Part shown: in pieces, positions 1 to 39,111 of the stretch | Numbering within the stretch: the stretch's first letter is position 1 | How the letters are laid out: each line of letters begins with the position of its first letter | Source: a virus | Strand: one strand, 5' to 3' | DNA: 46,185 nucleotides | Virus record (IMG/VR): IMGVR_UViG_3300045988_161343 | Program-made: the position numbers and the translations under genes | Notes under the pieces: generated by a model | Told to the model about the DNA's origin: nothing | Databases searched by the model: none | Seen by the model: only the letters and a program-made list of their open reading frames with translations

Positions 1-95
1 TTAATACAATTTTTATCAATTTTACTCCACTTTAATACAATTTTTATCAATTTTAATCTACTTTAATATATTTTTTTTATCAATTTTAATATAAT
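1..95. repeat. Three tandem ~30-bp direct repeats (TTTAATACAATTTTTATCAATTTTA...) at the window edge
   Basis: Copies at 1-30, 31-60 and 61-95 share the TTTAATA(C/T)A(A)TTTTTATCAATTTTAAT core. Confidence 0.5.
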
Positions 96-182
96 TATAT
101 TATAATTTTAATATGCTCTATAATAATTTTTAATTTATATACTATTTATTTAATCTTGCAATTTATTCATTTCATATCACTA

Positions 183-809
183 TTATTTTAGATAATTATT
201 TATCTAAAATTTTTTTTTATGTCTCATGATACCTATAAGGCTATAATCTACCAGCTATATTTCCAATAGGCTAATACAATGTAATAAGTGCAAGCTCCAT
301 ATCCTCTATATCTCTACTTTTACATCTTTAGTTTTAATTAATGGCTTATACTCAATTATGTCGCCTTTCTAAATAAGTTTATATACATATAATTCTTTAC
401 TATCTGCTCTTAATTTAGCCTAATGTTCCTTAAATCGTTTCTCAAAATCATATGTACTACCAATATAATATAAATGTCCATTTACATAAATACCATATAC
501 TCCACCTTCAACCATTTGCCTTTTCTTTTCTTCTTTTCCAAACAATTCATTAAATTCTTCTTGGGTACATACAATATCAAATGCTTTATTCCTAAACTGC
601 CAAAATGGTTTATTTAATTTTTTCTAATGTTCTGCAATTATTTCTTTATAGTTATCCTATACTATCCAAGCTCTTTTTAAGCCTGATGGAGTAGCATAAT
701 TCTTAATAGGTCCATTTAATTTCTCTATAATTTGCACTAATTCATTATAATTCTTTATATTTGTGCTAAATCCAAAACTATCAATTTTCAATTCAATTTT
801 TCCTTTCAT
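183..809 (-). CDS. GIY-YIG family endonuclease (homing-endonuclease-like), 208 aa, with in-frame TAG codons read as sense
   Basis: Minus-strand translation contains GGVYGIYVNGHLYYIGSTYDFEKRFKEH, the GIY...YIG...R motif. The ORF from ATG at 809 to TAA at 185-183 is continuous only if about 6 TAG codons are decoded. Confidence 0.5.
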
Positions 810-839
810 TTTTCAATTCATTTCTCTGCTGCCACAAGG

Positions 840-1135
840 TCAATACTGCCATTCAAGAAAACACCCCGTTATGTCCTATTTTCCCCGAAGGGGTAAATGG
901 GACATTTTGTCTGTCTCAATGAGACATTTTGATAAAAATGGGACATTGGGACGGGACATCTTCTTTACTTCGCTTATGTCCCATATGTCCCAATGTCCCA
1001 TTTTACTTAAAATTTTAAATAAAACATTTAGTGCTTATGTCCTTATGTCCCATTTTATCTATGATATTCCATTTAAAATGGGACATTTCTCGTGTCCCAT
1101 TTTTTTGGGACATTTATTGCTTATGTCTCAAAAAT
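840..1135. repeat. Array of ~15 copies of a GGGACAT/ATGTCCC core, often as AAATGGGACATTTT, in both orientations; iteron/operator-like
   Basis: Repeated ttatgtcc, aatgggacatttt, gggacattgggacgggacat, atgtcccatatgtcccaatgtccc and similar. The plus-strand ORF 763-1152 over it is judged spurious. Confidence 0.6.
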
Positions 1136-1628
1136 TAAATTCATTTTTCTAATTAACAAATGTTCCTTTTAATACTTTATCACTTATTTTCTTTATACTT
1201 TCTGCGTCCCCTATACCTTCACGGCGTCCTAATGTTTTTCTACTAACTGTTATATTATATAATTCCTAACACATTTGTATTACATCATTCTATGTAGGTT
1301 TTTTATTCTTCTTTTTAGTTGCTTCAACTACAGCATTTAACATCTATCCATCAGTAATTTTTTCTTTTTCTCCGCCTTTAGCCCCTGAAGCAGCCTTTTG
1401 TTCACTAACCTCTTTAGATTTATCAATAGTAAGTTTCATAGACTATAACAACATCATAATAATTCCATAATCTTTATCATTCTCATCAGGCTCAATACCA
1501 TATAATCCATAATTAGTTAATGCACTATATAATTTATATTTTAATTCTACATCTTCATTCTATTCAATAGTTTCTCTCATATTAGCCCAGAAGGTAAATT
1601 TTTCTTTATTCGGCTTTTCAACTGCCAT
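1128..1628 (-). CDS. HTH DNA-binding protein, 166 aa, needs read-through of 5 in-frame TAGs and ends at TGA
   Basis: SD GGAGG lies 9 nt upstream of ATG at 1628. C-terminal ...ELYNITVSRKTLGRREGIGD resembles a resolvase/sigma-region-4-type HTH. If TAG were a stop the ORF would be 22 aa. Confidence 0.45.
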
Positions 1629-1634
1629 AAATAA

Positions 1635-1793
1635 TTACCTCCTTTGAGCTTCAACAAAATCCCTCATAAAATCATCATCAACTTTAAATATCCAACAATT
1701 ATATTCAGGATACTTGGGATTGGGCATAGTCTATATAGGGAAATGACCATTTTCCACCAGCTTTTCCATAACAGCTAATGAATAAATAATCAT
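1635..1793 (-). CDS. Small hypothetical protein, 52 aa, one in-frame TAG
   Basis: Minus-strand ORF MIIYSLAVMEKLVENGHFPI(TAG)TMPNPKYPEYNCWIFKVDDDFMRDFVEAQRR. Its stop overlaps the SD of the downstream gene. Confidence 0.3.
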
Positions 1794-1823
1794 ATTTTTA
1801 TTTTGTTCTTTGTTCACTTTGTA

Positions 1824-1976
1824 TTACTTCTCCTTATCCATATATTCTTTAATAGCTTTTCTAATTAATTGCGAGACACTCATATCATTTTCTTTGCAGA
1901 ATTCATCAATACGGGCCTTTTCCTCATCCTTAACACGAGTCGCAATGTTATGATAGCCTTCACGTTTACTTGGCAT
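1824..1976 (-). CDS. Ribbon-helix-helix (CopG/Arc-like) transcriptional regulator, 50 aa
   Basis: Strong SD AAGGAG. Protein MPSKREGYHNIATRVKDEEKARIDEFCKENDMSVSQLIRKAIKEYMDKEK has the RHH beta-strand and two-helix pattern. Confidence 0.5.
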   Translation of the reverse strand: MPSKREGYHNIATRVKDEEKARIDEFCKENDMSVSQLIRKAIKEYMDKEK

Positions 1977-2191
1977 ATATATTCTCCTTTTCTTTTATTA
2001 ATCTACTATATATAAAAATATGAATAATATCTTTAACCGCGGTGGCCCAAAAAATTTTAAGTTATTTATAACGAGTTTAATTGATATAAGTTGAAATAAA
2101 AATATACCTATTGGTTTTATAAATAGTGGAAAAATATAAAAAAATTTGATAAAATATATATAAGATAAAAGATAAGAAAGGAAAATCTTAA
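1977..2191. promoter_or_regulatory. Divergent AT-rich control region between the leftward RHH gene and the rightward gene array
   Basis: 215 bp non-coding region with TATAAT-like boxes in both orientations and a GC-rich aaccgcggtggcccaaaa element. Confidence 0.4.
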
Positions 2192-2659
2192 ATGCCAAAT
2201 TATCGTAACGAAACCGGCGAAGTTGGTAGCTACAACAATCTTAAAGTCTGGGTCCTTAATGGTGAAGAATTCCAAAAGAGACTACTCATCAAGGGCGGAC
2301 TTAATGCTACTACTATCTACTGCCTTAAAGATTATGACCCCTATCATAAATTACTGCCCGACTGCATGTATGCCTATATGATTAACCCTAATGACCGCGA
2401 CAATCTTTACTGCCTTGGCACTATGGGCAATTATGGAAAAGTGAATTTCAAGAAAAATATTGCAGCGTGCGAAAAATTCTCACTCGCCCCTAAGCCTACT
2501 CCTAAACCCGCATTTGAAGTAGATACCACTAACTATGGTGATGCACCTACTCTTGCAACCATTGACAGCATTCTTGCCGATATCCAAAAGTGGAATACAC
2601 AAATTAATTATGCCGATTATACCAAAACAGTGGATAAATACTTGGAGGCACTTGTATGA
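2192..2659 (+). CDS. Hypothetical protein, 155 aa
   Basis: ORF track entry, SD present, TGA stop overlaps the next ATG. Confidence 0.55.
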   Translation: MPNYRNETGEVGSYNNLKVWVLNGEEFQKRLLIKGGLNATTIYCLKDYDPYHKLLPDCMYAYMINPNDRDNLYCLGTMGNYGKVNFKKNIAACEKFSLAPKPTPKPAFEVDTTNYGDAPTLATIDSILADIQKWNTQINYADYTKTVDKYLEALV

Positions 2660-9867: not shown

Positions 9868-10208
9868 TGGATAAGAATGATAAGTATTGGGAAAGTTCTC
9901 ACAGTTCCAATAGTAAGAAGAATCTGAAACGTAAGGTTGTTAATCGTATCAAGAAGATGAATAAGAATCTGCATGACGACCCTCTGTGGAAGGGCAGATT
10001 TGTAATTCATTGTGATGATATTTTTCATGGCAATTATGAAGATGGCAGCGGTAATTATGCTGTTGTATATCTGACTATTTGGGATAAAGAAAAGAAACTG
10101 CTTGACAGTAAGAGATTTGATGACCTTGATTTTACTATGTTCAATGGTTATCATTTCTGGGAATGGGTAAATCAATTCGTCTGTGATTGTATTATGGAGG
10201 ATAAATAA
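9867..10208 (+). CDS. Hypothetical protein, about 113 aa
   Basis: ATG at 9867 preceded by AAGGAG; track ORF 9855 is in the same frame. Confidence 0.5.
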   Translation: MDKNDKYWESSHSSNSKKNLKRKVVNRIKKMNKNLHDDPLWKGRFVIHCDDIFHGNYEDGSGNYAVVYLTIWDKEKKLLDSKRFDDLDFTMFNGYHFWEWVNQFVCDCIMEDK

Positions 10209-12197: not shown

Positions 12198-13355
12198 ATG
12201 AGTTATTTATTTACCAGTGAGAGCGTTTTTGCCGGTCATCCTGATAAGGTTTGTGATTAGGTAAGTGATGCTATTCTGGATTATGTCCTCCAGCTTGATC
12301 CTGATGCCCGAGTAGCTTGTGAATGTACTATTAGTCCAGGTCTTTTCCACATAATGGGAGAGATTACAGCTAAAACAGAACAATCTATTCCTTATCAGGA
12401 AATTGCAAGAGAGACTTTAAGGTTTATTGGTTATGACAATGATGAAGCAGGATTTAACTGCGACACTTGTTCATATATTATTAATGTAGTAAATCAATCC
12501 CCTGACATCGCTGCGGGTGTCGATAGAGATGGTGCTGGAGATCAAGGCATGATGTTTGGTTATGCAACTAACGAAACAGAAAATTATATGCCTATTGCCC
12601 AGCAGCTTGCTAACAATATCTCGGTCATTATGTTTAGTAAGTATAAAAATGATTTGCTACCTTGGGCGTTACCTGACGGCAAATGTCAGATAACTGTCCA
12701 ATACGATGATGATGGCAACTTTGAAGGGGTAGATACAATTGTCGTATCGGCCCAACACAAAGACAAGTATAGTATTAAGGAAATAACGCCCGATATTACG
12801 AACATTTGTAATATTGCCCTTCAAGGTTATGCCATTAAAAAAGATTGTAAATTTTATATTAACCCAACAGGTAAGTTTGTAAAGGGCGGACCTGCGGCTG
12901 ATACCGGATTAACAGGACGTAAAATCGTTGTAGATACATATGGTGGTTATGCACCACATGGTGGCGGAGCATTTAGCGGTAAAGATAGTTCTAAAGTAGA
13001 TAGATCTGGTGCTTATATGGCACGTTATGTAGCTAAAAATCTTGTAGCTTCTGGTGTTTGTGATAAATGTATGATTCAAGTTGCTTATATTATTGGGCAG
13101 ACAGAACCTGCATCTATTGATATTAATTGTTTTGGCACAGAAAAGAAACCTATCGCTGAAATTCTTGAAGCAGTTAATCAGACATTTGATTTTGCACCGC
13201 GTAGTATTATTCATAAATTTGATTTAAAGCATACTCGCTATTTACCCTATGCTTGCTTCGGTCATTTTGGTCGCATTGAATGTAATAGCCCTTGGGAACA
13301 GCTCGATAAAGTAGAAGAATTAAAAACAATTTTTGATTTTAAAAAGGAGAACTAA
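12198..13355 (+). CDS. metK: S-adenosylmethionine synthetase (MetK) homolog, 385 aa, with one in-frame TAG at a conserved Gln position
   Basis: MSYLFTSESV..GHPDKVCD(TAG)VSDA matches the MetK motif HPDKIADQISDA. Downstream GAGDQGMMFGYA, KGGPAADTGLTGRKIVVDTYGG and GGGAFSGKD are MetK hallmarks. The track only shows the part after the TAG. Confidence 0.8.
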
Positions 13356-18776: not shown

Positions 18777-20495
18777 ATGACGGATTTGAGGACTCTTATT
18801 CCAGAAGAAGAAAAGAATCTGCTGCATGATTATATTAAAGAGTACCTTCATTCTGATAATTACTGTACAGTAGATGAAATCAATCATCTTCTACGGTTTT
18901 GGGCTGCTGAAAAGCTTGACCTGTATGAGTTGCTTGGTAATAATTTGATGGTCGAAGATCATATTTCCTATCAGGCATCTGGGGATGATTTGATGGATAA
19001 ATTCAATGCAATGTATGAAGAAATTTATAATAATCCTGAATTAGCAAACGTTAAAAAATTCATTGACTCTTACGAGCAGATTACTAATATTTATTATTCT
19101 TGGATGGATGCCACTCTTGACAAGGATGAACGGGCTATGTGTTATAGTATGATTGAACATTGCCTTGATACTGAATCTCTTGTAGCCAATAAAAATTTGT
19201 ATATGTTTGATTGGGGTACCAAATCTGTCACTATTCGCCGAGGTCCACATGCAGATACTTCGAAGCCACTTGAACTGAAAAGTGATATGAAGCTGATGCG
19301 AATGATGGCTAAAATTGTCGATTGGTTTGAGCTGGATAAAGAAGCATTTGAGCAGTTTCGTATTCTTCATTCGCGTGTTTTGAATGACCGTATGATTAAT
19401 GCTGATATTGTACTGTCTATTCATCCGCTTGACTATCTTACTATGAGTGATAATGCTTGTGACTGGGAGAGCTGCATGAATTGGTATCAGGGTGGTGATT
19501 ATCGTCTTGGTACTGTCGAAATGATGAATTCTCCTGTCATCCTTGAAGCATATGTTGAATCTGAACATCCTTATCATCCTATTGACCGTGATACCAGAAC
19601 TTGGAGCAATAAGCGTTGGCGGTGTCTCTATATTGTTAATAAGGATATCATTACTGAAATTAAGCAGTATCCTTATAATAACATTTATCTGCGTGATTAT
19701 GTGCTGAATAAGATTAAGCAGTTGGCTGAACAAAATATGGGCTGGCATTATGATGATAAAATGTATGAGGTTTGGCAGAATCAGAGCAATAAAACTGATT
19801 TTGGTCAGGTTTATATCCGCATGAGGACTGGAGCTATGTATAATGATTATTATGATAATCATTATGCTTATATTAATCCAGAAGTAAAAGAAGTAGAAGT
19901 TTGCTATTCTGGTGTGGCTGAATGTATGTGTTGCGGTAAAGGCTATGAAGCTGACCCGAGTGGAAATGTAGACGCATTTGTAGAATGTGATAAAGTTGTA
20001 TGTGCAACCTGTGAAGGTAAAGTCCAGTGTGATGATTGCGGTGCTTGGATTGATAGTGAAGACGCTTGGTTTTGTAGTGAAGATGGTGCAACTTATTGCA
20101 GCTGGTGTGCAGAGGGCCGCACCCAGGTTTGTAGCTGCTGCGGAGAAACTAAATGGCTTGATTATGATTTCAAGAAACAGACTCTTCCCTACATGTTTGA
20201 GATAAAAACTCCTAATGGTAAGCATCGTCGAGATGTTGGAAATCCTATTGATGTTTGTGATGATTGTTATGAAGATTATGATTTCGATGATGTGCCGAAG
20301 GAGCTAGACTTATGGGGCGATTTTCAGTATATTGATGTTGACAAGGTAGATAAGAAGGTATGGGAGCCATTTCTGTCCCTTGAAAGAATTGCTAATGCCA
20401 AGGTGCGGCTAAAGGCAATTTACCCTGATGATTATGTTTAGTTTAAATTCTTGCCAAAATTGAATACTCGAAAATTTATAAAAAATTTGATATAA
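18777..20495 (+). CDS. Paralog A of a large family (HPLDYxxMSDN...WxSC core plus C-terminal multi-CxxC zinc ribbons), about 572 aa
   Basis: SIHPLDYLTMSDNACDWESCMNW core. The track ends at TAG 20439-20441; reading TAG as sense gives TAA at 20493-20495. Confidence 0.5.
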
Positions 20496-25428: not shown

Positions 25429-26784
25429 ATGACGCCTTATGAAGCATTAACGGCACAAGATAAGAAATATATTACTGAATATATTGAAACATGGGGTGGT
25501 GTTAATTCCCCTATTAAACTCAAAGCATCTCTTGATTATATCCTTCGAGAATGGAATAAGAGTAAACAAACTCTATTTAATATTTTTGGCGAAAAGTTAA
25601 TGCTGGAGAAGGAAATCCAGGTTGAAGATGGAGATAACAAAAAAGTAAGAGAAGTTAATGAGTATCTCTATAGCACTAATCCTGGTATCAATTTTATTAC
25701 AAATCTTCGTAGATTATTTGAATCTGATACTACTTATTTTGAAAATAGTTATGCAACAAGACATGCCATATATAATTTAACTCAAGCTTATCAACTTTTT
25801 ACTAATAGAGTTGTTAAAGGATTTGCTTATCACAATAAAGATGGTAAAGTAGTTAAAGTTCCAGAAGGAGCTAAGGTAATGAAAGTTCTTCAGAAAATGG
25901 CTAAAGAATTTGATTTGCCTGATTTTGAAATTTTTCGCAATCATGTTTCACGTATTACTGAAGTACGCAAATCTAAAATTAAATTTACTCTGTCTATTCA
26001 TCCCTTGGATTATATGACTATGAGCGATAATGCAAATTGCTGGGAAAGTTGTATGAATTGGACTCAAGGGTCAGGAAGCTATCGTGCAGGTACTATTGAG
26101 ATGATGAATAGTCCATTAGTTGTTGTAGCATATATTACTACTAAACCTTACTATCCAGAAAATACTTCTATTGAATGGACTTCCAAAAGTTGGAGAGAAT
26201 TAATCATTGTCCATCCGAATGCTATTTGTTCTGTAAAATCTTATCCTTATTACAATATTGCATTTGATAAAGCTCTTGTAAATTGGCTTGTTGATTTGGT
26301 TGAAGAAAAAACTGAATGGCGTTATAACAGAAAAAAGCCACAAGAGAGTTTGGAAAGTTGCTCTTATATTGGAGCTTGGCAAGATAAAGAAGATAAGGAT
26401 AATCATTTTCTGTTGGATTTTGCAACAAATGAAATGTATAATGATTTTGGTAATACAGAGAATTATGGAATTTTTTCAATTAATCCACCAAACAATAAAT
26501 ATCGTACATTTACAATTAATTATTCTGGTTTAATGACTTGTATGTGCTGCGGCGAGGATGGTTATTTGTCTGACGACACTGAAATGGTGATTTGTGAAGA
26601 CTGTGATCCACCTACTTATTGTTATTGTTGTGGTGAACGAGTTAATACAAATGATGCAATTGAAGTAGACGGCGAATGGGTCTGTGAAGATTGTTATTGT
26701 GATTTGCATAGATGTTTATGCTGTGAGGATACTCATTTTGATGAAGATTTCACTCCCGTATTTATTGGACATATTGATAATTAA
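25429..26784 (+). CDS. Paralog B of the HPLDY/zinc-ribbon family, 451 aa, ending at TAA
   Basis: SIHPLDYMTMSDNANCWESCMNW core; C-terminal CxxC clusters. Confidence 0.55.
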   Translation: MTPYEALTAQDKKYITEYIETWGGVNSPIKLKASLDYILREWNKSKQTLFNIFGEKLMLEKEIQVEDGDNKKVREVNEYLYSTNPGINFITNLRRLFESDTTYFENSYATRHAIYNLTQAYQLFTNRVVKGFAYHNKDGKVVKVPEGAKVMKVLQKMAKEFDLPDFEIFRNHVSRITEVRKSKIKFTLSIHPLDYMTMSDNANCWESCMNWTQGSGSYRAGTIEMMNSPLVVVAYITTKPYYPENTSIEWTSKSWRELIIVHPNAICSVKSYPYYNIAFDKALVNWLVDLVEEKTEWRYNRKKPQESLESCSYIGAWQDKEDKDNHFLLDFATNEMYNDFGNTENYGIFSINPPNNKYRTFTINYSGLMTCMCCGEDGYLSDDTEMVICEDCDPPTYCYCCGERVNTNDAIEVDGEWVCEDCYCDLHRCLCCEDTHFDEDFTPVFIGHIDN

Positions 26785-28587: not shown

Positions 28588-29586
28588 ATGGGTAAAAAAG
28601 TTTTAGTTCCTGATTTTACTGAAAATTGTAGAGGGATTTTGGAAGGGTTATTCAAGATTAGTGAAGTAGGTCTTTTGAAAGCTCTCGGTGATTTTGTATC
28701 TAATAAATATTCTAATGTAGAGATTACAGAAGATTATGTATATGCTGAAGGTAATATTCCTGTTATGCTTATTGCACATGTAGATACTGTATTTAGACAA
28801 CCAATTCGTCAATTTACTTATAATGAGAAAAGAGCTGTTTATAAAGGCAAGGAAGGTCTTGGAGCAGACGATAGAGCAGGTGTTTTTGCGATTATTCAGA
28901 TTTTACGCAAAAAGTATAGACCTTATGTTCTTTTTACAACAGATGAAGAAATGGGTGGCTATGGTGCGCATATATTTGTTGAAGCACATCCAGTAGCTCC
29001 AAATATTAAGTACATGATTGAGCTTGATAGAGCTGGTGAAAGAGATTGTGTCTTCTATGAGTGTGAAAATTTTACATTTATAGATTATGTTGAAAGTTTT
29101 GGTTTTAGACAAGCAATTGGATCATTTACAGATATTAGTATTATTATGCCTGAATGGGAAATTGCCGGAGTAAATTTATCAGTTGGCTATCATCATGAAC
29201 ATACTCAAAATGAAGATTTGCATATTAGAACATTGTATAATACAATTAATAAAGTATGTAAAATGCTTGATGATATTGAAAATGCAGATAAATATAAATT
29301 TATCCCCAGCAAGGAATATCTTCAGTGGATTACATTGACTAATAAATATCATATGCCTTATGATTTTGATGATGATAAACTTATTAATTGTAGTTTTTGT
29401 AATCAGTTGTATTATGAGTGGGAAGATTTTCCTCTTGATATTGATGGAGTAAAGGTTCATGTATGCCCTGAATGTTTGGCACTTGATCCTAATATTCATC
29501 AATGTGAAAGGTGCTATAATTTATTTTATTCAAATAATATGAAAGAAAGAGTATGTGATAAATGTCGAGTCCCTGTTGTAATTTAA
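28588..29586 (+). CDS. M20/M28/M42-type metallopeptidase-like protein with C-terminal Cys4 zinc ribbons, 332 aa
   Basis: MLIAHVDTVF ... GADDRAGVFA motifs (HxD, GxDD) of the zinc-peptidase/deacylase fold. C-terminus CSFCNQ...CPEC...CERC...CDKC. Confidence 0.45.
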   Translation: MGKKVLVPDFTENCRGILEGLFKISEVGLLKALGDFVSNKYSNVEITEDYVYAEGNIPVMLIAHVDTVFRQPIRQFTYNEKRAVYKGKEGLGADDRAGVFAIIQILRKKYRPYVLFTTDEEMGGYGAHIFVEAHPVAPNIKYMIELDRAGERDCVFYECENFTFIDYVESFGFRQAIGSFTDISIIMPEWEIAGVNLSVGYHHEHTQNEDLHIRTLYNTINKVCKMLDDIENADKYKFIPSKEYLQWITLTNKYHMPYDFDDDKLINCSFCNQLYYEWEDFPLDIDGVKVHVCPECLALDPNIHQCERCYNLFYSNNMKERVCDKCRVPVVI

Positions 29587-29666
29587 ATGAAATTAAAGAA
29601 CAAGTAAAGAAGGTTATTGCCTATTCATAGGGACTGGACATTAACCTTTTAAATATTGATAAATTA

Positions 29667-30987
29667 ATGAATGATTGGGAAGAGAATAAATGCAAATTTT
29701 ATAGCAGACTTCCTGGTAATAAATTAATTTATCAAAGTCATGCACCTATTACAATGTCTATTTCAGAAGATGATAAAAAAGCTGAATTAGATTGTTTTAT
29801 TGACAACATTCGTTGGCGTTATGGCTTATTTGAATTAAGAGATTTTGTTGAAAATAATAGAAAAAATTTTTATAATAATATTTTAAGCGAAGATTATTCA
29901 ATGAATAATGGAACTATCATTCCAAAAGGAATGAAAATAATTAAAGCATTTAAATATTTTGTAGAAGATAAGGAAATTCTTACTGAAATACAAGATAAAG
30001 CTAGTATGCTTATTCAAAATACAAAAATTAGTGGATATTTTTGTATGTCAGTTCATCCATTGGATTATCTTAGTTTAAGTGAAAATACGCATAATTGGCG
30101 GTCATGTCATGCTCTTGATGGAGAATATCGTGCTGGTAATTTATCTTATATGGCAGATAATTGTACGATTATATGTTATATTAAGAGTGAACATGATGCG
30201 GTTTTACCTAGATTTCCAGATGATGTACCATGGGCAGATAAGAAGTGGCGTATGCTTCTTCATGTATCTGATGATGATACTATGGTTATTTCAGGTCGGC
30301 ATTATCCTTATGAAAGTAAAGGATTACAAGATTTTGCTCTTGAACTGTATGAAACATTTTTCGGGCAAGGATATCGGTTTACCGATTGGTGTCATGAAAA
30401 ATATAATACATTTACAATAAATGATAAAATCTTTTCTAATGAAGTTCGTTTATTACCTACTGGGTATATGATGACCCCAGATATTAAGGTTATTGTTGAC
30501 CCAAAAAATCCTTTACATTATAATGACCCTCTTCATTCTACTGTATATGACTATTGGTTTAGTATTGCTTATAGTGAACCTTATTGGCATGAAGAAGGTA
30601 TTCCGCAAGATAAATTAATTCTTCCAAGAACTCGTACCACTACTAAAGTTAATATAGGACATGATGTAAAATGTTGTATTTGTGGTAAAAATGATTGTGT
30701 TTTAACAGATACGATGCTTTGTATTGATTGTGAACTTAAATATGGTACAGAAGAAACAGAAGATTTTACTTTCTGTAGAGAATGCGGTAGACGTATTTAT
30801 ATTCCTGAAGCAATATCATTAGATGATGATGATGGTTATGTATGCCGTAGTTGCGGAGACAATTATTAGATATGTGATAATTGTAATATGTATTATGATA
30901 AAAAAGATTTAATTTATGATGAAGAAAACAATGCTTACTATTGTGAAGCTTGTTATGATGAAATTTTATTTGATAGGGAGAATGAAT
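29667..30987 (+). CDS. Paralog C of the HPLDY/zinc-ribbon family, about 440 aa. TAG at 30867-30869 is read through into a further Cys4 ribbon ending at TAA
   Basis: MSVHPLDYLSLSENTHNWRSC core. Extension ICDNCNMYYDKKDLIYDEENNAYYCEACYDE continues the CxxC module. Confidence 0.5.
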
Positions 30988-30988
30988 A

Positions 30989-31297
30989 ATGGCAAAAGGT
31001 AGTATTGCTAAAGATGCTGTTGTAGAAAAAATTGCAGAAGCATTTGGTGAAGATTTCCTCGGATCTTATGATAAAAAGTATTATGTGCGAGCTAAAGAAA
31101 ATGGACAATATATTCAGATTGCAATTAGTCTAACGTGTCCGAAAACTCCTGTAGAAAATTTTGGTTCTATGGATTTTGGTAATAATGAACTTAATTTTGA
31201 AAATGGAGCAACAATTCAGTCTGTAAAGAAGGCTACAGAAATTAGTCCAGAAGAAGAAGAAAATTTAAAAGCTTTAATTGAAAAGCTTGGTTTATAA
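30989..31297 (+). CDS. Hypothetical protein, 102 aa
   Basis: ORF track. Confidence 0.5.
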   Translation: MAKGSIAKDAVVEKIAEAFGEDFLGSYDKKYYVRAKENGQYIQIAISLTCPKTPVENFGSMDFGNNELNFENGATIQSVKKATEISPEEEENLKALIEKLGL

Positions 31298-31404: not shown

Positions 31405-31686
31405 ATGAAGAAGATTATAATTCCTCAAGAAGAAGTAAATTATCTTTAGAAATTAAATTATGAAATTGAAGCTAGAAAAAATTTATGTCAATTTTTAATT
31501 AGACAAAATATTAGAAATAAAGCTTTTAATGATTATCATAATGAGTATATAGAATTATTTGCTGAATATGAATTAGCTAAATTAGAATTAGAAAATAATT
31601 ATATCAAACCAGAAATTGGGAATCAAACTTGCAATTGGAATTTAGATTTTTATACAAATGAGGTAATTATTGATGTTATTTCCTAA
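31405..31686 (+). CDS. Small protein, 93 aa with one TAG, first gene of the rSAM cluster
   Basis: SD AAAGGA; continuous frame ending at TAA; overlaps the rSAM start. Confidence 0.4.
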
Positions 31687-33013
31687 AATAAGCCACATTC
31701 CTGAAGAATTTTCTGATTTTATAGGTCGTTTATATCCTGAAGATTGTTTAAATTCTTAGTCTGTATTTACATTAACATTTTAGGTTACAGATGATTGTTG
31801 TTTAAATTGTACTTATTGTTATCAAGGGCATAAAGGTAAACATAAATTATCTTTTGAAACAGCTAAACAGATGATTGATTAGATATTAACCAGAGATAAT
31901 AAAATTATTGGTTATATTGATTCTTATAAAATACCAGGAGTAATAATAGAATTTATAGGTGGAGAGCCATTTTTAGAAATTGAATTAATTGATTAGATTA
32001 CTGATTATTTTATTAATAAAATGATTGAATTGCGGCATCCTTGGGCTACTAAATATAAAATTTCAATTAGTTCTAATGGTATTTTATATTTTGAACAAAA
32101 AGTACAAGAGTATATTAAAAAAAATAATGAAAATTTAAGTTTATCAATTTCTATTGATGGAAATAAAAAATTACATGACGCTTGTAGAGTTTTCCCTGAT
32201 GGTAGTGGTAGTTATGATAAAGCATTGTCTGCCGCATTACATTATAGCCATAATTATAATAAATGGATTGGGAGTAAAATGACTATCTCTCCATTTAATA
32301 TAGATTATTTATATGACGCTGTTTTAGAAATGATAAACAATGGTTATAGTCAAATCAATCTAAATTGTGTGTATGAAAAAGGTTGGGAACTTAACCATGC
32401 CACTACATTATATTATTAGTTAAAAAAAATTGCTGATTATTTATTAAATAATGATTTGTGGGATAAAGTTTATTTATCTATTTTTTATATTAATGATGGA
32501 AGTAAAAATTTATCTAATGATAATTGGTGTGGCGGGAATGGTCGTATGTTAGCCTTAAATTGGAAAGGTAAATATTATCCATGTTTACGTTATATGGAAG
32601 ATAGCATAAGTAATCAGCCAGAATATTATATTGGAGATATTTATTAGGGAATAGGCCAAGATAATTTAACCATCAATAGATTAAAAGATTTATCTGAAAT
32701 AACAGTTATTAGTCAATCTCCTCAAGAATGTTTAGATTGTGAAATTTCTGGAGGATGCTCTTGGTGTACAGCTTATAATTATCAAGAAACAGGTAATGTT
32801 AATAAAAGAGTTACTTATATTTGTGATATGCATTATGCTACAGTTCTAGCTTCTTTATATTATTTAAATTCTATTTTAAAAAAAATAAACTCGAATAAAC
32901 GATTTAAATTTAATGGAGATATGGAAAAAGCATTAAAAATTATCTCTTAGGATGAATATAATATAATAAAGGAGACAATGACAAATGAAAATAGGAACGA
33001 CAATAACTTCTGA
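31673..33013 (+). CDS. Radical SAM enzyme with C-terminal SPASM/twitch domain (anSME / RiPP-maturase-like), 446 aa with about 7 in-frame TAGs; fragmented in the track
   Basis: CCLNCTYC = CxxxCxxC cluster, GGEP motif. C-terminal Cys clusters CGGNGRMLAL...YYPCLRY and CLDCEISGGCSWCT. Frame is continuous from ATG 31673 to TGA 33011-33013 only with TAG as sense. Confidence 0.65.
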
Positions 33014-33635
33014 TAGATTCAATGAATTAAAGAAAAAAATAAAGGCTGAATGTTTACGTCGTAAATATACCGGTAGTGTAAGTTCATATGGAGGGACTTC
33101 TTATGATTATACTACTTAGCCTGATAATGGAAAAGTTATTTCAAAAGAACACATAACAAAACTGGTAGAACCTATGGCGGCAATAAATATTGAAAATCAG
33201 AATGAAAATATAAATGTTATTAAAGATGATGATTTAAGTACATTAGAGGCAAAAATTACAGCTTATCAAGCTATGGGATTAACTGATTCGAATACTGGAT
33301 GTTCAGCTTATTGCACTGGATTATGTTCTACCAGTTGTAGCGAAAGTTGTGGAGTACAATGTTAGGAAACTTGTTTAGGTAGTTGTAAGAATACTTGCCA
33401 AGGAGGCTGTCAAAACACTTGCAGAGGCGGATGTCAAAGCAGTTGTAGTGGTAGCTGTAGCGGATGTAGTGGTTCTTGCTCAGGTGGATGCTATACAGGA
33501 TGTAGTGGATGCAGTGGTAGCTGTACAAGACATTGTGCTAACGATTGTACTGGATTGTGTGGAGGAAGTTGTTCAGGTTTATGTACAAGCTGTACTGGCA
33601 CATGTAGTGGCACAGGTAGAAATGAACCATTATAA
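32985..33635 (+). CDS. Cysteine-rich repeat peptide, 216 aa: ~100-aa leader followed by ~27 tandem C-x3-C units; precursor-like
   Basis: SD AAGGAGA 9 nt upstream. Core is CSAYCTGLCSTSCSESCGVQC(TAG)ETCLGSCKNTCQGGCQNTCRGGCQSSCSGSCSGCSGSCSGGCYTGCSGCSGSCTRHCANDCTGLCGGSCSGLCTSCTGTCSG; two in-frame TAGs. Confidence 0.55.
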
Positions 33636-33753
33636 TTTAAAAATATTTATCGAAAATACATATAACTGTAAGATATATTATATGTATCTTATACAAGATA
33701 ATATTTTATTTTGTATAAGTAATTATAAGAATATAAATTTTCAAAAATATAAT

Positions 33754-34323
33754 ATGGATATTTAGATTTTATCTGTTTATGAATATTTATGTCAAAAATA
33801 TATTTTACATAAGGATATATTAAAACAATATAAAGGTATAGAATTATATAAAATTATGGAAATTCAAGATAAAATTTTTATTAATAGATATAAATTATTA
33901 TTGTAGATTATTAATAATAATTATAATTTTGATAATTAGTTAATATACACTGATTTTAATAATTTTAATTTTGAACAAAATATTAGTTATATAAATTATT
34001 GTTTAAAATTGCTATTTAATAATTTTAAAAAAATAGATAAACAATTTTGGAAAATTTTAGATTAGATTTATTTTTTAATTAATGGTAAAACTAATTTATT
34101 TTTATTGTTGGGAAATTTTTATTTGAATAAAAGTAATTTATAGCAATTTACTGAAGAAATAAAAAAAATTCCTGGAATTAAAGAATAGCTCTCTTTTAGT
34201 TATACAGCTTTAAATTTAGCTATTGAAATTGATAAAGTTGCAGAAAATAAAAATTATCTTAATGAATTAATTGAAATTATTGATAATCATTCACAAGAAA
34301 AAATTTATAAATTTGATATTTAA
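33754..34323 (+). CDS. Very AT-rich hypothetical protein, about 189 aa, with 6 in-frame TAG and no TAA or TGA
   Basis: In an AT-rich stretch, 570 nt free of TAA and TGA in one frame is unlikely by chance. The N-terminal part of track ORF 33448-33765 is in the same frame. Confidence 0.4.
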
Positions 34324-34378
34324 TAAAAATTAATATATAATATATATACAAAATAAAGAAAATAAAGACTTTAACAGC

Positions 34379-34491
34379 AAAAAATGGACAGTAAATCCGT
34401 CGCGAATGCTACGCAGGTTCGAATCCTGCCCTCCCCACCATTATATGGCGGAGGTAGGGAAGCGGTTAAACCCAGCGGAACCAAACCAAAT
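34379..34491 (+). ncRNA. Promoter-driven tRNA-like element with circularly permuted arrangement (T-arm + 3' acceptor + CCA, 6-nt linker, then 5' acceptor + D-arm), flanked by the inverted repeat AAAGACTT/AAGTCTTG
   Basis: gcaggttcgaatcctgc cctcccc a cca ttatat g gcggagg ta ggg aagcggttaaa ccc a gcgga. Acceptor strands are complementary with one C-C mismatch. The candidate anticodon stem tccgt/gcgga is split across the ends. Confidence 0.25.
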
Positions 34492-34585
34492 AAGTCTTGT
34501 TTGAATAAAATAATTATTTGATTTTTAATAAAAAATATTATATAATATTTATATAAAAAGACTTTTACAGCAACTTAAACTTTTT

Positions 34586-34660
34586 TCCGTGGTCGAATAA
34601 CTGGATAATTCATCAGAGTTAATTCTGAAAATAAGGATTCGAATTCCTTCCTTGGAGCCA
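34586..34660 (+). tRNA. tRNA-like gene with canonical acceptor, D and T arms, CCA, and a 6-nt anticodon loop (gTTAat); own promoter, flanked by AAAAGACTTTT/AAAAGTCTT inverted repeats
   Basis: tccgtgg tc gaat aactggata attc a tcaga gttaat tctga aaat aagga ttcgaat tcctt ccttgga g cca. Confidence 0.35.
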
Positions 34661-34742
34661 AGTATAAAAAGTCTTGGGTAAATTTCTTAATTTGAAAAAA
34701 TTAAAAAAATATAATATAATATATAAGTAATCAATAAGAAAT

Positions 34743-34891
34743 CAAATAAATGCTCTCGTAGCTCAATTGGTCAGAGCCGGCGACTTATCCAAGATTAGTT
34801 TAAATGGCAAAATAGTCTATGCGCAAGAAAGATGTAAGTTCAAATCTAACATCTTGGGCCAAATCGCCAGATGTGGGTTCAAATCCCGACG
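34743..34891 (+). tRNA. tRNA carrying a ~73-nt tRNA-like insertion inside the anticodon loop; anticodon after excision is ambiguous (UAU, UAA or CAA depending on junction)
   Basis: Outer: gctctcg ta gctc aattggtca gagc c ggcga cttat[...]aa tcgcc agat gtggg ttcaaat cccga cgggagc a cca. Insert 34780-34852 is ccaagat...gtaag ttcaaat ctaac atcttgg g cca (acceptor-like stem + T-arm + CCA). Confidence 0.45.
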
Positions 34892-34926
34892 GGAGCACCA
34901 TATTCCAATAGAAAGGAATTAAAATA

Positions 34927-35166
34927 ATGAAGTTGACAAATATTAAGCAGGTTGAAGATTTTATCGCAGCAGTTAATCGCGCACATAGTAATGTATGGCT
35001 GGTTAGTCCACAAGGTGATAGATATAATATGAAATCTGCACTTTCACAGTATATCGCGCTTGGCGCATTACTTGGTCAGCATGGTGATGAATTGGAACTT
35101 TTCTGTGATAGTAAGCAAGATGAAGGTTTGTTTATTGAATTTTTTGTTCGTCACCCTGAAGTTTAA
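34927..35166 (+). CDS. Small hypothetical protein inside the tRNA array, 79 aa
   Basis: ORF track; SD AAAGGAATTAAAATA ATG. Confidence 0.45.
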   Translation: MKLTNIKQVEDFIAAVNRAHSNVWLVSPQGDRYNMKSALSQYIALGALLGQHGDELELFCDSKQDEGLFIEFFVRHPEV

Positions 35167-35234
35167 TTGAAAAATTAAAAAAAATATTATAAAATATATA
35201 TACAAAATAAATGAGAAATAAATTCTCATTTGTA

Positions 35235-35312
35235 TGGGACAGTAGCTTACGAGGTCGGAGCATTGGTCTGAAAAACCAAAGGATGGAGGCTCGATACCTC
35301 CCTGTCCCACCA
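35235..35312 (+). tRNA. tRNA-Phe (anticodon GAA)
   Basis: gggacag ta gctt acgaggtcg gagc a ttggt ctgaaaa accaa agggat ggagg ctcgata cctcc ctgtccc a cca. Preceded by a promoter element and the aatgagaa...ttctcatt hairpin. Confidence 0.7.
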
Positions 35313-35390
35313 ATTGGTCTTATACATGGGGTTTCCGATTTGAACTAGGCAGATTAGTCACCTGCCGTTGGCAATAGACCAATTAAAAAT
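35313..35390 (+). ncRNA. Structured ~76-nt element closed by a 9-bp stem (AATTGGTCT/AGACCAATT) with an internal ggcag-attagtcac-ctgcc hairpin; not a canonical tRNA
   Basis: Immediately 3' of tRNA-Phe. Perfect 9-bp terminal helix. Function unknown. Confidence 0.25.
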
Positions 35391-35563
35391 AAACTGAGGC
35401 AAAGGGAAATCGGGTTTTAATGTATAGCTATAAAGAAATTTTATAGTTAGCTATGATGAACTTCATAGCAAAATCCTCTTGTAATCAAGCTAATTGGGAG
35501 AGGGGTAGCGCGGGAACGGGGAGAAGCGCGCTATAAAAGGTGAAATACTTCTTTCCACCATAT

Positions 35564-35639
35564 GCCGGTGTAGCCGAATGGCATAGGCGAATGATTTAGG
35601 ATCATTAATCTGAAGGTTCGAGTCCTTTCACCGGTACCA
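35564..35639 (+). tRNA. Class-I (short variable arm) tRNA with anticodon UAG; formally Leu(CUA-reading) but lacks the long variable arm of Leu tRNAs
   Basis: gccggtg ta gcc gaatggcata ggc g aatga tttagga tcatt aatct gaagg ttcgagt ccttt caccggt a cca. Confidence 0.55.
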
Positions 35640-35721
35640 ACAGTGAAGTAGTAGCTATATTCACTATAATCAAGGCTCGGTGGTTGGTGGCTCCATCGTT
35701 ATATAAATAAGCCATATATAT

Positions 35722-35792
35722 TACTTCTTGGTGTAATGGAAGCATGCTGCCTGAAAGAGGCGGAGGTATTGGTTCAATTCCAATAGAAGGAT
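35722..35792 (+). tRNA. Atypical tRNA-like gene (T-arm attgg-ttcaatt-ccaat). Anticodon arm is ctgcc-tgaaaga-ggcgg without U33, or a 6-bp stem with a 5-nt loop; no encoded CCA
   Basis: tacttct tg gtg taatggaag cat g ctgcc tgaaaga ggcgg aggt attgg ttcaatt ccaat agaagga t. One A-G mismatch in the acceptor. Confidence 0.3.
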
Positions 35793-36142
35793 TAATTAAA
35801 GCTGGGAAATAATAGTCGCCCATAACTAATTATTTAATATAGGACTATTATTAAAGGTTATTTAAGTTAAAGAAACGCGGTTGAAGTTATTACTTACTTG
35901 ATTATAAAATAACATGACCGCAAGACGAGTGTTTGAAGCTTGTCTATAAACAAATTCTTCATATGTTGTCTTTTTATACTTACTCTTTGGTTGTTTCTTG
36001 ACATATAAGTAAAAACGGAAAGGGAGTTAAAGGTTTAGCTATAAAACCGGTTTGTTTTTAATAAGATTTTTAAAATTAGGTGACAAAATCTTATTTGAGT
36101 GATGCTGCTCAAGAGGGTCCGGAACCTCTAAAATGCGTATAT

Positions 36143-36275
36143 GCGCCAGTGGCCAAGTGGTATGGCACCTGCCTTTGTGGGATTGATGTAAGTAGCATTT
36201 TAATGTATTGGTTCAAATCCAATATTCCGCACCATAAGCAGGGCAACGCGGGTTCGATCCCCGCCTGGCGCACCA
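36143..36275 (+). tRNA. tRNA with Gln-like D-arm carrying a 58-nt tRNA-like insertion in the anticodon loop; the residual loop could read UUU, UUG, UAU or CAU depending on junction
   Basis: Outer: gcgccag tg gcc aagtggtat ggc a cctgc cttt[...]taa gcagg gcaac gcggg ttcgatc cccgc ctggcgc a cca. Insert 36177-36234 is gtgggat tg atg-taagtag-cat tttaatgt attgg ttcaaat ccaat attccgc a cca. Confidence 0.45.
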
Positions 36276-36596
36276 GGTCAAGTTTGAGAAATTTCATAGA
36301 GCATCGCTGACGTTAAATGGTTCTTATATGAAAACGCGCAATTAGTATAAGATAGCAAAATTCTCGTAGTTCATCCATTAGAGAACCTTAAAGAGTAATG
36401 GAATAAGATTATATCATGAGAAATTATGTATATAGTTTTATTTAATTTGGTGTTGAACCAAATATTGTGAAATTCAAGCGAGTCTACCTTATTAGCCCTA
36501 CTGTAATAGCCAGTCTAATATGCCCTCCATACCCAGTGAGGATTTTTATAAAAGTCTATTTAATTTTTCTTGGCAGCTTAATTAAATAGACTATAT

Positions 36597-36673
36597 GCGG
36601 GATTAGCTCAGCTGGTTAGAGCGTTTGGTTTACACCCAAGAGGTCATTGGTTCAAATCCAATATCCTGCACCA
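36597..36673 (+). tRNA. tRNA-Val (anticodon UAC)
   Basis: gcgggat ta gctc agctggttag agc g tttgg tttacac ccaag aggtc attgg ttcaaat ccaat atcctgc a cca. Preceded by a 13-bp hairpin at 36555-36595. Confidence 0.75.
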
Positions 36674-36726
36674 ATAAATTTGAAAATTTAAAAAAAATAT
36701 TATATAATAATAAAGGAGATATTTGA

Positions 36727-36900
36727 AATGGCAACTACTAAGAAACCTGCAATTAAAATGGATAGCACAGAGTTGAACGAGTATCTTCTGTTCCGCCGTC
36801 GTAGATCTATTGTTCCGGCCAAGAAAGGTAAGGGTATGGAATATGATAGGGCGAAAGAAAAAGAGAAATCTGAAAAAATGATTTCTGATGAATAAATCGG
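36727..36900 (+). CDS. Small basic protein, 57 aa, within the tRNA array
   Basis: Promoter variant + SD AAAGGAGA; MATTKKPAIKMDSTELNEYLLFRRRRSIVPAKKGKGMEYDRAKEKEKSEKMISDE. Below track cutoff. Confidence 0.4.
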
Positions 36901-36990
36901 GTGTCTCTTTTCGAGAATTTATATAACGCATACTAATAACTTTGGAGTTGCGTCCAACGGTCAGTGAGTAGTTTTCAGGCTGACATTTAT

Positions 36991-37066
36991 CGGGCTGTAG
37001 AGTAATTGGCTAATTCAGAAGCCTTTCACGCTTCAAACCTGGGTTCGAATCCCAGCAGCTCGACCA
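36991..37066 (+). tRNA. tRNA-Glu (anticodon UUC)
   Basis: cgggctg ta gagt aattggcta attc a gaagc ctttcac gcttc aaac ctggg ttcgaat cccag cagctcg a cca. Confidence 0.75.
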
Positions 37067-37074
37067 TATGGTGC

Positions 37075-37151
37075 TATAGTTCAGTTGGCTAGAATGTCGG
37101 ACTGTCTCTCCGAAGGTCAGGGGTTCGAGTCCCCTTAGCATCGCCACATGC
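37075..37151 (+). tRNA. tRNA-Asp (anticodon GUC)
   Basis: ggtgcta ta gttc agttggcta gaat g tcgga ctgtctc tccga aggtc agggg ttcgagt cccct tagcatc g cca. Confidence 0.75.
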
Positions 37152-37247
37152 TTTTTCCTATGTAAACAATTTTGAAACATAGAACTTGATGGAGCGTTCT
37201 ATTAGTCTGATGCCTGCATTAGATTAAGTTTTATAACCATCATATTT

Positions 37248-37321
37248 GGGGACATAGTTTATGGTAGGAAAACGTTGAATTTAATTCAAAATCGAGGGTG
37301 CAATTCCCTCTGGCTCCACCA
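37248..37321 (+). tRNA. Atypical tRNA. The anticodon arm folds either as 5 bp + 5-nt loop or 4 bp + 7-nt loop ATTTAAT (anticodon UUA, ochre-type); assignment unresolved
   Basis: ggggaca ta gttt atggtagg aaac g ttgaa tttaa ttcaa aatc gaggg tgcaatt ccctc tggctcc a cca. One A-G mismatch in the acceptor. Confidence 0.35.
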
Positions 37322-37446
37322 TTTATGAAAGACAATACAGCAATTATAAATTTGCTTTGGGAGCCGTGTGTTGTAGGTTCGAGTCCTACTGTCTGGTCGA
37401 AGATCGGATATAGCGTAATTGGTAGCGCAACGTATAAAAATTGTCT

Positions 37447-37519
37447 TGTTAATATTGCGGGATCGTCAAGTGGTTAAGACACCAGCCTCATAAACTGGTT
37501 ATCATGGGTTCGAATCCCA
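37447..37519 (+). tRNA. tRNA-Met/Ile2-type (anticodon CAU), no encoded CCA
   Basis: tgcggga tc gtc aagtggttaa gac a ccagc ctcataa actgg ttatc atggg ttcgaat cccac tcccgca a. 31-39 is a C-A mismatch. Confidence 0.6.
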
Positions 37520-38165: not shown

Positions 38166-38171
38166 ATTATA

Positions 38172-39094: not shown

Positions 39095-39111
39095 AGAAAG
39101 GAGAACACGAG

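Follow-up and report, generated by a model that had tools for sequence, protein, structure and literature searches.

Gut phages that read TAG as glutamine ('genetic code 15') have been described, with recoding proposed as a translational regulator of late genes (bioRxiv 10.1101/2021.08.26.457843), and metaproteomic validation has been published (PMC9523058). In the published model, genes compatible with the standard code are translated first and TAG-containing genes follow after the code switch (bioRxiv 10.1101/2021.08.26.457843). TAG-recoded gut phages of ~136 kb are also represented by phAss-1 (proposed Phassvirus), for which three suppressor tRNA genes were reported (PMC10607447). Here we analyse a leftward-transcribed cassette at positions 183-1976 of a 46,185-nt stretch (the window) of the virus record IMGVR_UViG_3300045988_161343. 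The cassette, to which an earlier note made from the sequence had drawn attention, encodes a ribbon-helix-helix (RHH) protein, a 60-aa protein, a DUF6291 protein and a GIY-YIG nuclease.

Comparison with relatives shows that TAG is a glutamine codon under purifying selection in this cassette. Our preferred reading, with a joint probability of about 0.55, is that of a conserved TAG=Gln cassette of the suppression-dependent class with an array-binding DUF6291 protein and an RHH repressor. Under the standard code of the host, the RHH protein alone could be completed; the 60-aa protein, the DUF6291 protein and the nuclease (where intact) would be made only after TAG suppression has become active. 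The cassette would belong to the suppression-dependent gene class though it is non-structural. The C-terminal domain of the DUF6291 protein would bind the adjacent repeat array in a protein-DNA pairing of the iteron type, and the RHH protein, product of the first cistron, would repress the operon. TAG-to-Gln recoding and late-gene timing are already published; the new details here are the phage lineage, its cassette and how sharply the TAG island stands out.

The window resembles the code-15 phages in its low GC, its TAA/TGA stops and its in-frame TAGs, which lie in conserved genes and align to Gln. It also shares with them long standard-code-compatible stretches beside TAG-rich genes, a tRNA array and a search that found no canonical suppressor. 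Unlike in those phages, TAG is densest here outside the lysis and structural genes, in a cassette of a regulator, a putative DNA-binding protein and a nuclease. Single 5'-end TAGs occur in a few genes of an otherwise TAG-free block, including MetK, and the sole suppressor-type tRNA found has a UUA anticodon and an alanine-type acceptor. With phAss-1 the phage shares its genome size class, human gut origin, many open reading frames (ORFs) with in-frame TAG and phage tRNAs. It differs from phAss-1 in showing no detectable nucleotide similarity over 1-2400 and 25000-46185, and in that no CUA tRNA was found here.

Cassette layout and the meaning of its TAG codons

Once TAG is treated as a sense codon, four frames are open on the minus strand: 1824-1976 (50 aa), 1635-1817 (60 aa), 1128-1628 (166 aa) and 183-809 (208 aa). 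This agrees with the description in the earlier note of a leftward module that is open only when TAG is decoded, except for the RHH gene, which has no TAG in the window copy and therefore needs no read-through. The parts of the cassette and its upstream region are as follows.

183-216, minus strand: out-of-frame tail of the 183-809 ORF, over an AT-rich hairpin (UUUUAGAUAAA/UUUAUCUAAAA) just past the true stop of the nuclease gene
217-317, minus strand: deletion junction and 3' part of the GIY-YIG gene, in the -1 frame at 220-315, with 2 TAG and a TAA stop at 217-219
318-809, minus strand: 5' part of the GIY-YIG gene, codons 1-164, with 4 TAG (codons 51, 62, 130, 147)
810-868, minus strand: conserved segment (…GGGGTGTTTTCTTGAATGGCAGTATTGACCTTGTGGCAG…), just upstream of the GIY-YIG start
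840-1001, minus strand: probably spurious 53-aa ORF within the repeat array
869-1127: repeat array of ~16 copies of GGGACAT/ATGTCCC in both orientations, ~260 bp between the DUF6291 and GIY-YIG genes
1128-1628, minus strand: DUF6291 protein, 166 aa, with 6 in-frame TAG (codons 23, 62, 95, 113, 121, 160)
1635-1817, minus strand: 60-aa protein with one TAG, codon 29 (1731-1733); GTG start 6 nt past the RHH stop
1824-1976, minus strand: CopG/Arc-type RHH protein, 50 aa, the first cistron, with 0 TAG; the standard code suffices
1977-2191: divergent intergenic region, with a promoter-like motif at 2142-2162 for the plus-strand gene at 2192
Within 1977-2191: GC-rich element GGGCCACCGCGG, ~65 nt upstream of the RHH start codon

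Spacers of only 6 nt separate the three upstream genes, which have Shine-Dalgarno sequences. The cassette is an opposite-strand island within a co-directional gene array and does not lie at a genome end. Its gene order and opposite strand are kept in seven related loci (L001-L007), and its position is the same in eight genomes. The divergent intergenic region is conserved in L001 and L003 and may hold the promoter/operator of the leftward operon. Scans of 1-2700 for sigma-70 and terminator consensus sequences gave hits no commoner than in shuffles.

The phage family that carries the cassette consists of large gut phages that read TAG as glutamine, an uncultured lineage with contigs of 137-214 kb. 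The window is only part of such a genome, about a third of roughly 140-210 kb. We rejected the view that it is a complete circular genome with the cassette beside late genes. The last ORF would close exactly over the junction if the window were circular; contrary to this, relatives carry further genes beyond the GIY-YIG gene. The related loci sit on contigs of 137-214 kb, and capsid, portal and terminase were not found by Pfam and PHROG among the 20 largest window ORFs. The same scan identified an RNA ligase, MetK, an RlaP-like nucleotidyltransferase, a metallophosphoesterase, an M28 peptidase, a radical S-adenosylmethionine (radical-SAM) enzyme and tail fibres; the window also carries a tRNA array. 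Searches of GenBank phages by blastn, megablast and tblastn (queries: window 1-2400, 25000-46185 and the DUF6291 protein) gave no match. The L001 locus is 91% identical to the window at the nucleotide level in an alignment over the cassette and right flank, with other flank segments at 86-96%. For L002 the cassette is 76% identical and the flanks 69-89%, and L004 is 93.7% identical to the window.

The RHH protein matches PF01402 RHH_1 (E 8.6e-7, 29.1 bits against a gathering cut-off of 20.5) and phrog_876, a transcriptional repressor (E 2.4e-8). The ratio of nonsynonymous to synonymous substitution rates (dN/dS) of its gene is 0-0.15, and the orthologues of L002 and L005 have one TAG, at codon 28. 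The single TAG of the 60-aa gene is kept in all seven orthologues (window, L001-L005, L007), and dN/dS downstream of it is 0-0.12. The 60-aa protein has no Pfam match, and its assignment as DUF5659 was rejected, as only an orthologue gave a weak hit (E 0.036), that of L099, a distant standard-code relative.

Several lines of evidence bear on the identity of the amino acid. In MetK (12198-13355), codon 21 is an in-frame TAG within GHPDK..DqVSD; it aligns with the Q of GHPDKIADQISD in all solved MetK structures shown. This TAG is conserved in two relatives, L001 and L003, and the claim that metK needs TAG decoding is thereby upheld. The radical-SAM maturase (31670-33013) has 7 TAG and was compared with 107 homologues of <58% identity. 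Position 37 is Q in 105 of the 107 and position 108 in 70; with the seven TAG columns pooled, Q accounts for 33% against a background of 3.8%. Alanine, a candidate prompted by the G3:U70 pair of the UUA tRNA described below, was rejected because it is virtually absent from the TAG-aligned columns. Cassette orthologues exchange TAG with CAA/CAG, other replacements being mainly K and E, and the Pfam domains DUF6291 and GIY-YIG extend across TAGs. The Gln alignment, the exchange with CAA/CAG and the dN/dS values past the TAGs together show that these are sense codons and not nonsense mutations.

We consider it highly improbable that the ORFs are decayed pseudogenes whose TAGs are ordinary nonsense mutations. 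The GIY-YIG gene is indeed frameshifted in the window (19 nt) and in L004 (14 nt). Against decay of the whole, in no relative is the DUF6291 or the 60-aa gene interrupted by an in-frame TAA or TGA, and six of the eight GIY-YIG genes are likewise free of them. The dN/dS values are well under 1 past the TAGs, TAG positions are conserved or swapped with CAA/CAG, and unrelated enzymes encoded by this genome have TAG where their homologues have an invariant Gln. On these comparisons the pseudogene reading is largely refuted for every gene but the window copy of the GIY-YIG gene. The earlier note had named additional TAA or TGA codons as the sign of decay. The window GIY-YIG copy shows this sign in part, with a frameshift and, in the correct frame, a TAA before its C-terminal segment, and the DUF6291 and 60-aa genes do not.

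ORF length adds little to the case. Reading TAG through lengthens the longest window ORF from 554 to 899 aa, and the summed length of ORFs of at least 100 aa grows from 10,811 to 15,440 aa. Region shuffles in which TAG was likewise read through gave ORFs with a mean of 88 codons, a 95th percentile of 131 and a maximum of 206. ORF length is therefore weak evidence, and the case rests on homology and selection. Every window ORF has a TAA or TGA available as its stop. A small number of TAGs are found 3-20 codons ahead of the TAA/TGA (18777-20495, 39112-40185, 40727-41944) and may be either stops or sense codons.

The standard-code relative L099 informs on the ancestry of the island. In L099, TAG serves as stop, with 0 in-frame TAG in 22 genes. 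An opposite-strand island there encodes a 60-aa protein without a Pfam match in the place of the RHH gene, a homologue of the small protein, and a DUF6291 protein 42% identical to that of the window. It ends in an array of at least 13 TGAAACA units and has no nuclease gene. Residue q62 of the window DUF6291 protein aligns with Q in the L099 orthologue. The presence of the same island without TAG implies that its core predates recoding and that the TAGs arose in place. The cassette with its TAG-free counterpart is a test bed for whether TAG gates translation within one operon, and for which genes are locked.

TAG distribution and the proposed timing of cassette translation

TAG use differs sharply along the window.

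Cassette: 13 TAG in 472 codons, 27.5 per 1000; TAG is 59% of Gln-type codons
Plus-strand block 2192-31297: 9 TAG in 9129 codons, 1.0 per 1000; 4% of Gln-type codons
Plus strand 31405-46185: 28 TAG in 3160 codons, 8.9 per 1000; 28% of Gln-type codons

Within the window, TAG reaches its highest density in the cassette, which is set among almost TAG-free genes (Fisher P 3e-12 for cassette versus block, 0.001 for cassette versus right-hand region). About 35 of the 37 genes that flank the cassette on the other strand in L004 and L005 have 0 TAG. A non-structural cassette with ~59% TAG among its Gln-type codons thus contrasts with none in ~40 neighbouring genes on both sides. Flanking genes of 24-27% GC have 0 TAG yet use CAA, and the coding strands of cassette and flanks are alike G-rich and C-poor. 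The AT-rich neighbours and the equal coding-strand skew show that composition does not explain the island. Strand composition as the cause of TAG richness was rejected on the same ground, since only the cassette uses TAG under that skew. The window as a whole has a GC content of 33.7% and a G-rich plus strand.

A TAG-dense cassette among TAG-free genes fits class-specific, suppression-dependent translation and points toward a switch. We infer the timing of the cassette under the switch model from these sequence patterns. The earlier note had argued that recoding is not restricted to late genes and is genome-wide rather than a switch. Its first part stands, because TAG is a sense codon in the cassette and in MetK, which are non-virion genes that need TAG decoding; TAG decoding is not confined to virion genes. 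The second part finds no support in TAG use of 27.5 versus 1.0 per 1000. Nor is there support for the cassette as an early module. A promoter-like motif, AAAWATTATAWAATATWTATA, has 13 plus-strand sites between 2142 and 35202 (e.g. 3368, 8790, 14121, 18729, 35182) where 0.14 are expected. Its sites often stand behind a terminator-like hairpin and lie ahead of TAG-poor block genes and of the point where the tRNA array begins. A scan of the window gave no site upstream of the cassette and none right of 35202, the tail-fibre region included.

A number of observations weigh against the reading of a suppression-dependent cassette with an array-binding protein. The TAG-poor block is not strictly compatible with the standard code, as MetK and four or five other genes have 1-2 genuine TAGs. 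TAG density correlates with low GC and is high in the HNH endonuclease genes of relatives, and weak selection on accessory genes could add to it. A CUA-anticodon tRNA was looked for and not found, either in the window (about a third of the genome) or in 98 related loci. For the DUF6291 protein as a putative DNA-binding protein, the best fold match has a non-significant E of 1.3 and the HTH_32 match of the L099 orthologue lies below threshold; GC skew keeps one sign on both flanks and does not switch at the array as it would at an origin.

Part of this evidence is what one would expect if TAG were decoded constitutively, without a temporal switch. Its density would then reflect codon-usage selection and drift, TAG being inefficient, tolerated in poorly expressed, fast-evolving accessory or selfish genes (the regulator cassette, homing-type nucleases) and avoided in strongly expressed ones. 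We regard this as possible, at clearly less than even odds. It accommodates the genuine TAGs of MetK and several genes of the TAG-poor block, the low GC of the TAG-rich genes (0.23-0.31) and the HNH genes of L002 and L003, with 4-5 TAG among TAG-free neighbours. The cassette genes are moreover fast-evolving (dN up to 0.5, GIY-YIG), and a survey calls replication genes 'variably' recoded in some clades (bioRxiv 10.1101/2021.08.26.457843). The contrast between 59% TAG among Gln-type codons in the cassette and 4% in the block speaks against it, as do the AT-rich flanking genes that use CAA and never TAG. Tail-fibre genes, presumably well expressed, contain TAG, and the block TAGs cluster near 5' ends (5/9, P 9e-4), which drift does not predict. 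Import is an improbable alternative: the cassette would be mobile or recently acquired from another code-15 phage with its own TAG-rich, AT-rich codon usage, and its TAG density would be silent on regulation. Several features suit a mobile element: the opposite strand, a GC content (0.26-0.31) lower than that of the flanks (0.33-0.45), a nuclease gene in the cassette, and the absence of the GIY-YIG gene from L099 and its decay in two genomes. They are countered by the same cassette position in eight genomes, by a divergence that tracks the flanks (for L001 91% versus 86-96%, for L002 76% versus 69-89%) and by the island core at the analogous L099 position without TAG.

Beside the suppression-dependent cassette that we prefer, we put forward a code-gated operon as a tentative proposal. 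One transcript would yield different protein sets before and after the TAG=Gln switch, with the RHH protein readable first and the rest TAG-locked. Such gating may extend to single sentinel TAGs in codons 3-23 of otherwise TAG-free genes (e.g. MetK), and the decoder may be non-canonical, either the conserved UUA tRNA or a conserved Gln-like tRNA with a 6-nt anticodon loop.

Within the TAG-poor block, genuine TAGs were seen at codons 6, 3, 21, 19 and 23 of the genes starting at 2656, 11292, 12198, 27706 and 29562; for five of the nine block TAGs the position is within the initial 10% of the ORF (binomial P 9e-4). The upstream starts of these genes are backed by good Shine-Dalgarno sequences or ATGA start/stop overlaps. 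These 5'-end TAGs could be a cheap 'sentinel' gating or just relaxed N-termini.

The DUF6291 protein, its repeat array and the nuclease gene

The 166-aa protein matches DUF6291 (PF19808, E 4.2e-8, 33.7 bits against a cut-off of 27.2), with residues 11-88 on profile positions 2-78 of 79, across two TAGs. We found 16 full-length homologues of 166-177 aa on contigs of up to 214 kb. At codons 23 and 62 every orthologue examined has TAG (Q where the sequence is a database translation), and dN/dS past the first TAG is 0.02-0.53. The protein had been described as an HTH (helix-turn-helix) protein with 5 TAGs that would be 22 aa under the standard code. The length is right, as the first TAG is codon 23; the TAG count is six, and the HTH label is weakly supported. 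Pfam and NCBIfam gave no HTH family for it. The AlphaFold model is all-helical, with a four-helix C-terminal domain at a predicted local distance difference test (pLDDT) score of ~80-87. Its best Foldseek matches in the PDB are winged-helix domains at E 1.3-7, which is not significant. HTH_32 on the L099 orthologue has an E of 0.02, below the cut-off. An HTH in this protein is a plausible guess. As to function, a PDB sequence search, Foldseek, NCBIfam and tblastn against GenBank phages and plasmids returned nothing significant. PADLOC, a defence search, matched no system in the cassette and gave only a weak homing-endonuclease hit. A literature search turned up no mention of DUF6291, a family without known function.

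The repeat array next to this gene is strongly clustered. Of the 12 TGGGACA sites in the window, nine lie in 898-1112 (215 bp), where 2.9 are expected for the entire window. The array layout is kept in relatives with other units, GGGACAA in L002, AGGACAA/GCGACAA in L003 and TGAAACA in L099. Among relatives the DUF6291 protein is almost constant in its N-terminal half and divergent in its C-terminal half, and the repeat unit varies in parallel with the C-terminal domain among lineages. This co-variation suggests that the C-terminal domain binds the repeats. A ~52-aa ORF that had been counted as a gene kept intact by TAG decoding is probably spurious, since the 53-aa frame lies in the array and is not kept in L002 and L003. 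Next to the array, the segment 810-868 is near-identical in the window, L001, L002 and L003 while the adjoining repeats differ; it may be a promoter or ribosome-binding-site region.

Plasmid copy-control/replication cassettes of the CopG(RHH)-Rep-iteron type, such as copG-repB of pMV158, have a comparable order. Like them, the cassette has a small RHH first cistron, then a putative DNA-binding protein and a nearby short-repeat array that co-varies with the protein. The RHH protein also gave hits to ORF56, RepB-RCR_reg and a RepA regulator, plasmid copy-control/replication families, all below cut-off. Unlike such cassettes, it has no Rep, helicase-loader or nickase domain and no GC-skew origin switch. 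Rep, DnaD and helicase-loader families were not matched among the cassette proteins in Pfam, PHROG and NCBIfam, and there was no match in 72,556 plasmids. A replication origin deduced from GC skew was rejected, because the skew tracks only transcription direction and coding strand. The likeness is one of layout only.

The GIY-YIG gene has an N-terminal domain of ~100 aa, followed by GIY (106-108), YIG (115-117) and R125. Its earlier description as a GIY-YIG nuclease is supported, as PF01541 matches the 183-809 ORF above the cut-off (E 1.1e-5, 26.0 bits against 22.6), at profile positions 3-41 of 78. The claim that the protein would be cut after 31 residues under the standard code is correct for the ORF starting at M99. 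The placement of an R...E catalytic motif within that ORF is not: the catalytic Glu lies in another frame. Compared with the intact L001 orthologue, the window lacks 19 nt between two GTAGAG direct repeats. After codon 166 the 183-809 frame (IqRIWSLHLLHC…) is not GIY-YIG-like, and its last 42 residues are out of frame. The true C-terminus is encoded at 220-315 (RDIEDMELALITLYqPIGNIAGRLqPYRYHET) and carries the catalytic Glu segment (IEDMELALITLYqPIGN), which therefore falls outside the 183-809 ORF. With the frame repaired, PF01541 matches at positions 3-74 of 78 (E 1.9e-6, 28.5 bits). About 6 TAGs had been counted in this gene. The 183-809 frame in fact has 7, the last 3 of which (codons 168, 185, 202) are out of frame; the genuine count is 4+2 = 6 over two frames. 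The hairpin past the true stop folds at -8.1 kcal/mol and may be a terminator.

The gene is intact in L001, L002, L003, L005, L006 and L007 (189-216 aa, 4-11 TAG), with dN/dS past the first TAG of 0.21-0.43. Judged by these orthologues, the claim that the GIY-YIG gene is rich in TAGs holds at the level of the family. In L004 a deletion of 14 nt arose independently, only a few bases from the 19-nt one, and needs the opposite shift. Two independent frameshifts that need opposite corrections argue for decay and not for programmed frameshifting; a programmed -1 frameshift on GUA AAA G as a rescue was rejected in view of both deletions. From the alignment, the window gene appears to be inactivated by the 19-nt frameshifting deletion. 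Annotators should take note that table 11 loses the cassette and that table 15 shows the frameshifted nuclease as an intact 208-aa protein.

Like the GIY-YIG homing endonucleases of the I-TevI/Seg type, the protein scores above the PF01541 gathering threshold and has GIY, YIG, the Arg and E..ALI..P.GN. It gave sub-threshold hits to TIGR01453 (group I intron endonuclease) and PADLOC 'HEase', and its gene, as with selfish nucleases, is lost or decaying in some genomes. In I-TevI the catalytic domain is N-terminal and the DNA-binding domain C-terminal. Here the catalytic domain is C-terminal, behind the ~100-aa domain, and the gene is not in an intron. Also unlike I-TevI/Seg, it is fixed beside a repeat array in seven relatives, and the window copy is frameshifted.

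Three minor observations touch this gene and its surroundings. In L005 and L006 (~11100), an in-frame 9-nt loss in the GGVYGVY duplication gives GGVY---KNGELIYIGS, in comparison with L007, a further slippage-type variation in the GIY-YIG gene. A second TAG-rich nuclease gene is an HNH/NUMOD-like endonuclease gene on the minus strand of L002 (12455-13078) and L003 (12430-13050), with 4-5 TAG, amid TAG-free genes beyond the cassette. To the left of the nuclease gene, window 1-213 is an AT-rich left end with three direct repeats of ~31 nt (TTAATACAATTTTTATCAATTTTA…). It has no counterpart in L001 and L004, where both alignments end at window 213-214, and it could represent either the end of a contig or variable intergenic DNA.

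Candidate decoders, unusual tRNAs and other genes of the window

Default ARAGORN predicts nine tRNAs in the window, none with a CUA anticodon; Rfam and ARAGORN with relaxed settings bring in several further, unusual ones. In a survey of TAG-recoded genomes, a suppressor was detected in only ~40% (bioRxiv 10.1101/2021.08.26.457843). Since the suppressor is often missing in published recoded genomes, a CUA tRNA is not strictly defining for code 15.

A tRNA with a UUA anticodon that default ARAGORN misses lies at 37248-37321 (Rfam 47.7 bits). It recurs in L008 (2744-2817), L009 (4342-4415), L011 (4064-4137), L012 (4342-4415) and L021 (13803-13876), and is 96-99% identical in these five related contigs despite far more diverged flanks. 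An exact-pattern search for it in IMG/VR gave no match. Ochre-type anticodons read UAG too. This tRNA has G3:U70, A73, an A5·G68 mismatch and an odd T-loop, UGCAAUU. G3:U70 with A73 is the alanine identity set, which contrasts with the Gln at TAG positions. TAA is the main stop codon of the phage.

Another tRNA-like gene, at 34586-34660, has a 6-nt anticodon loop (GUUAAU), U1-A72, G73 and an encoded CCA. U1-A72 and G73 are features of bacterial tRNA-Gln. The gene is 99-100% conserved in L019-L021 (~9920-9995) and is found by relaxed ARAGORN and not by Rfam. These features make it a possible non-canonical UAG decoder.

The tRNA at 34752-34900 holds in its anticodon loop a 73-nt tRNA-like insert (34789-34861), which is also found in L019-L022. 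On the Rfam tRNA model the insert scores 33.1 bits; its acceptor stem is 7 bp long, its T-loop is GUUCAAAUC and its CCA is encoded. Its exact removal leaves a canonical 76-nt tRNA-Ile(UAU) with the loop CUUAUAA. The nested tRNA is conserved in four relatives, with a compensatory G-C to A-T change in the inner acceptor stem; in one relative the same insert sits in another outer tRNA body. A limited literature search turned up nothing on a tRNA nested in an anticodon loop. The phage RNA ligase, RlaP-like enzyme and phosphoesterase could matter for rejoining the halves. A further tRNA at 38173-38258 (86 nt) has a long variable arm and a CCA (Trp) anticodon and is conserved in relatives. In Rfam it scores higher with the tRNA-Sec model (38.8 bits, below the gathering score) than with the general tRNA model (33.9 bits).

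Elsewhere in the window, three paralogues of 450-570 aa without a Pfam match (18777-20495, 25429-26784, 29562-30989) share a SIHPLDY(L/M)(T/S)(M/L)S(D/E)N motif and Cys-rich (CxxC) C-terminal regions. The region 31670-33635 encodes the radical-SAM peptide maturase, of the family with CXXX-repeat targets, and behind it a 216-aa protein, its presumed substrate, that has a long C(S/T)G(S/G)C repeat tract. An overlapping 324-aa ORF at 33349-34323 probably starts further downstream than listed.

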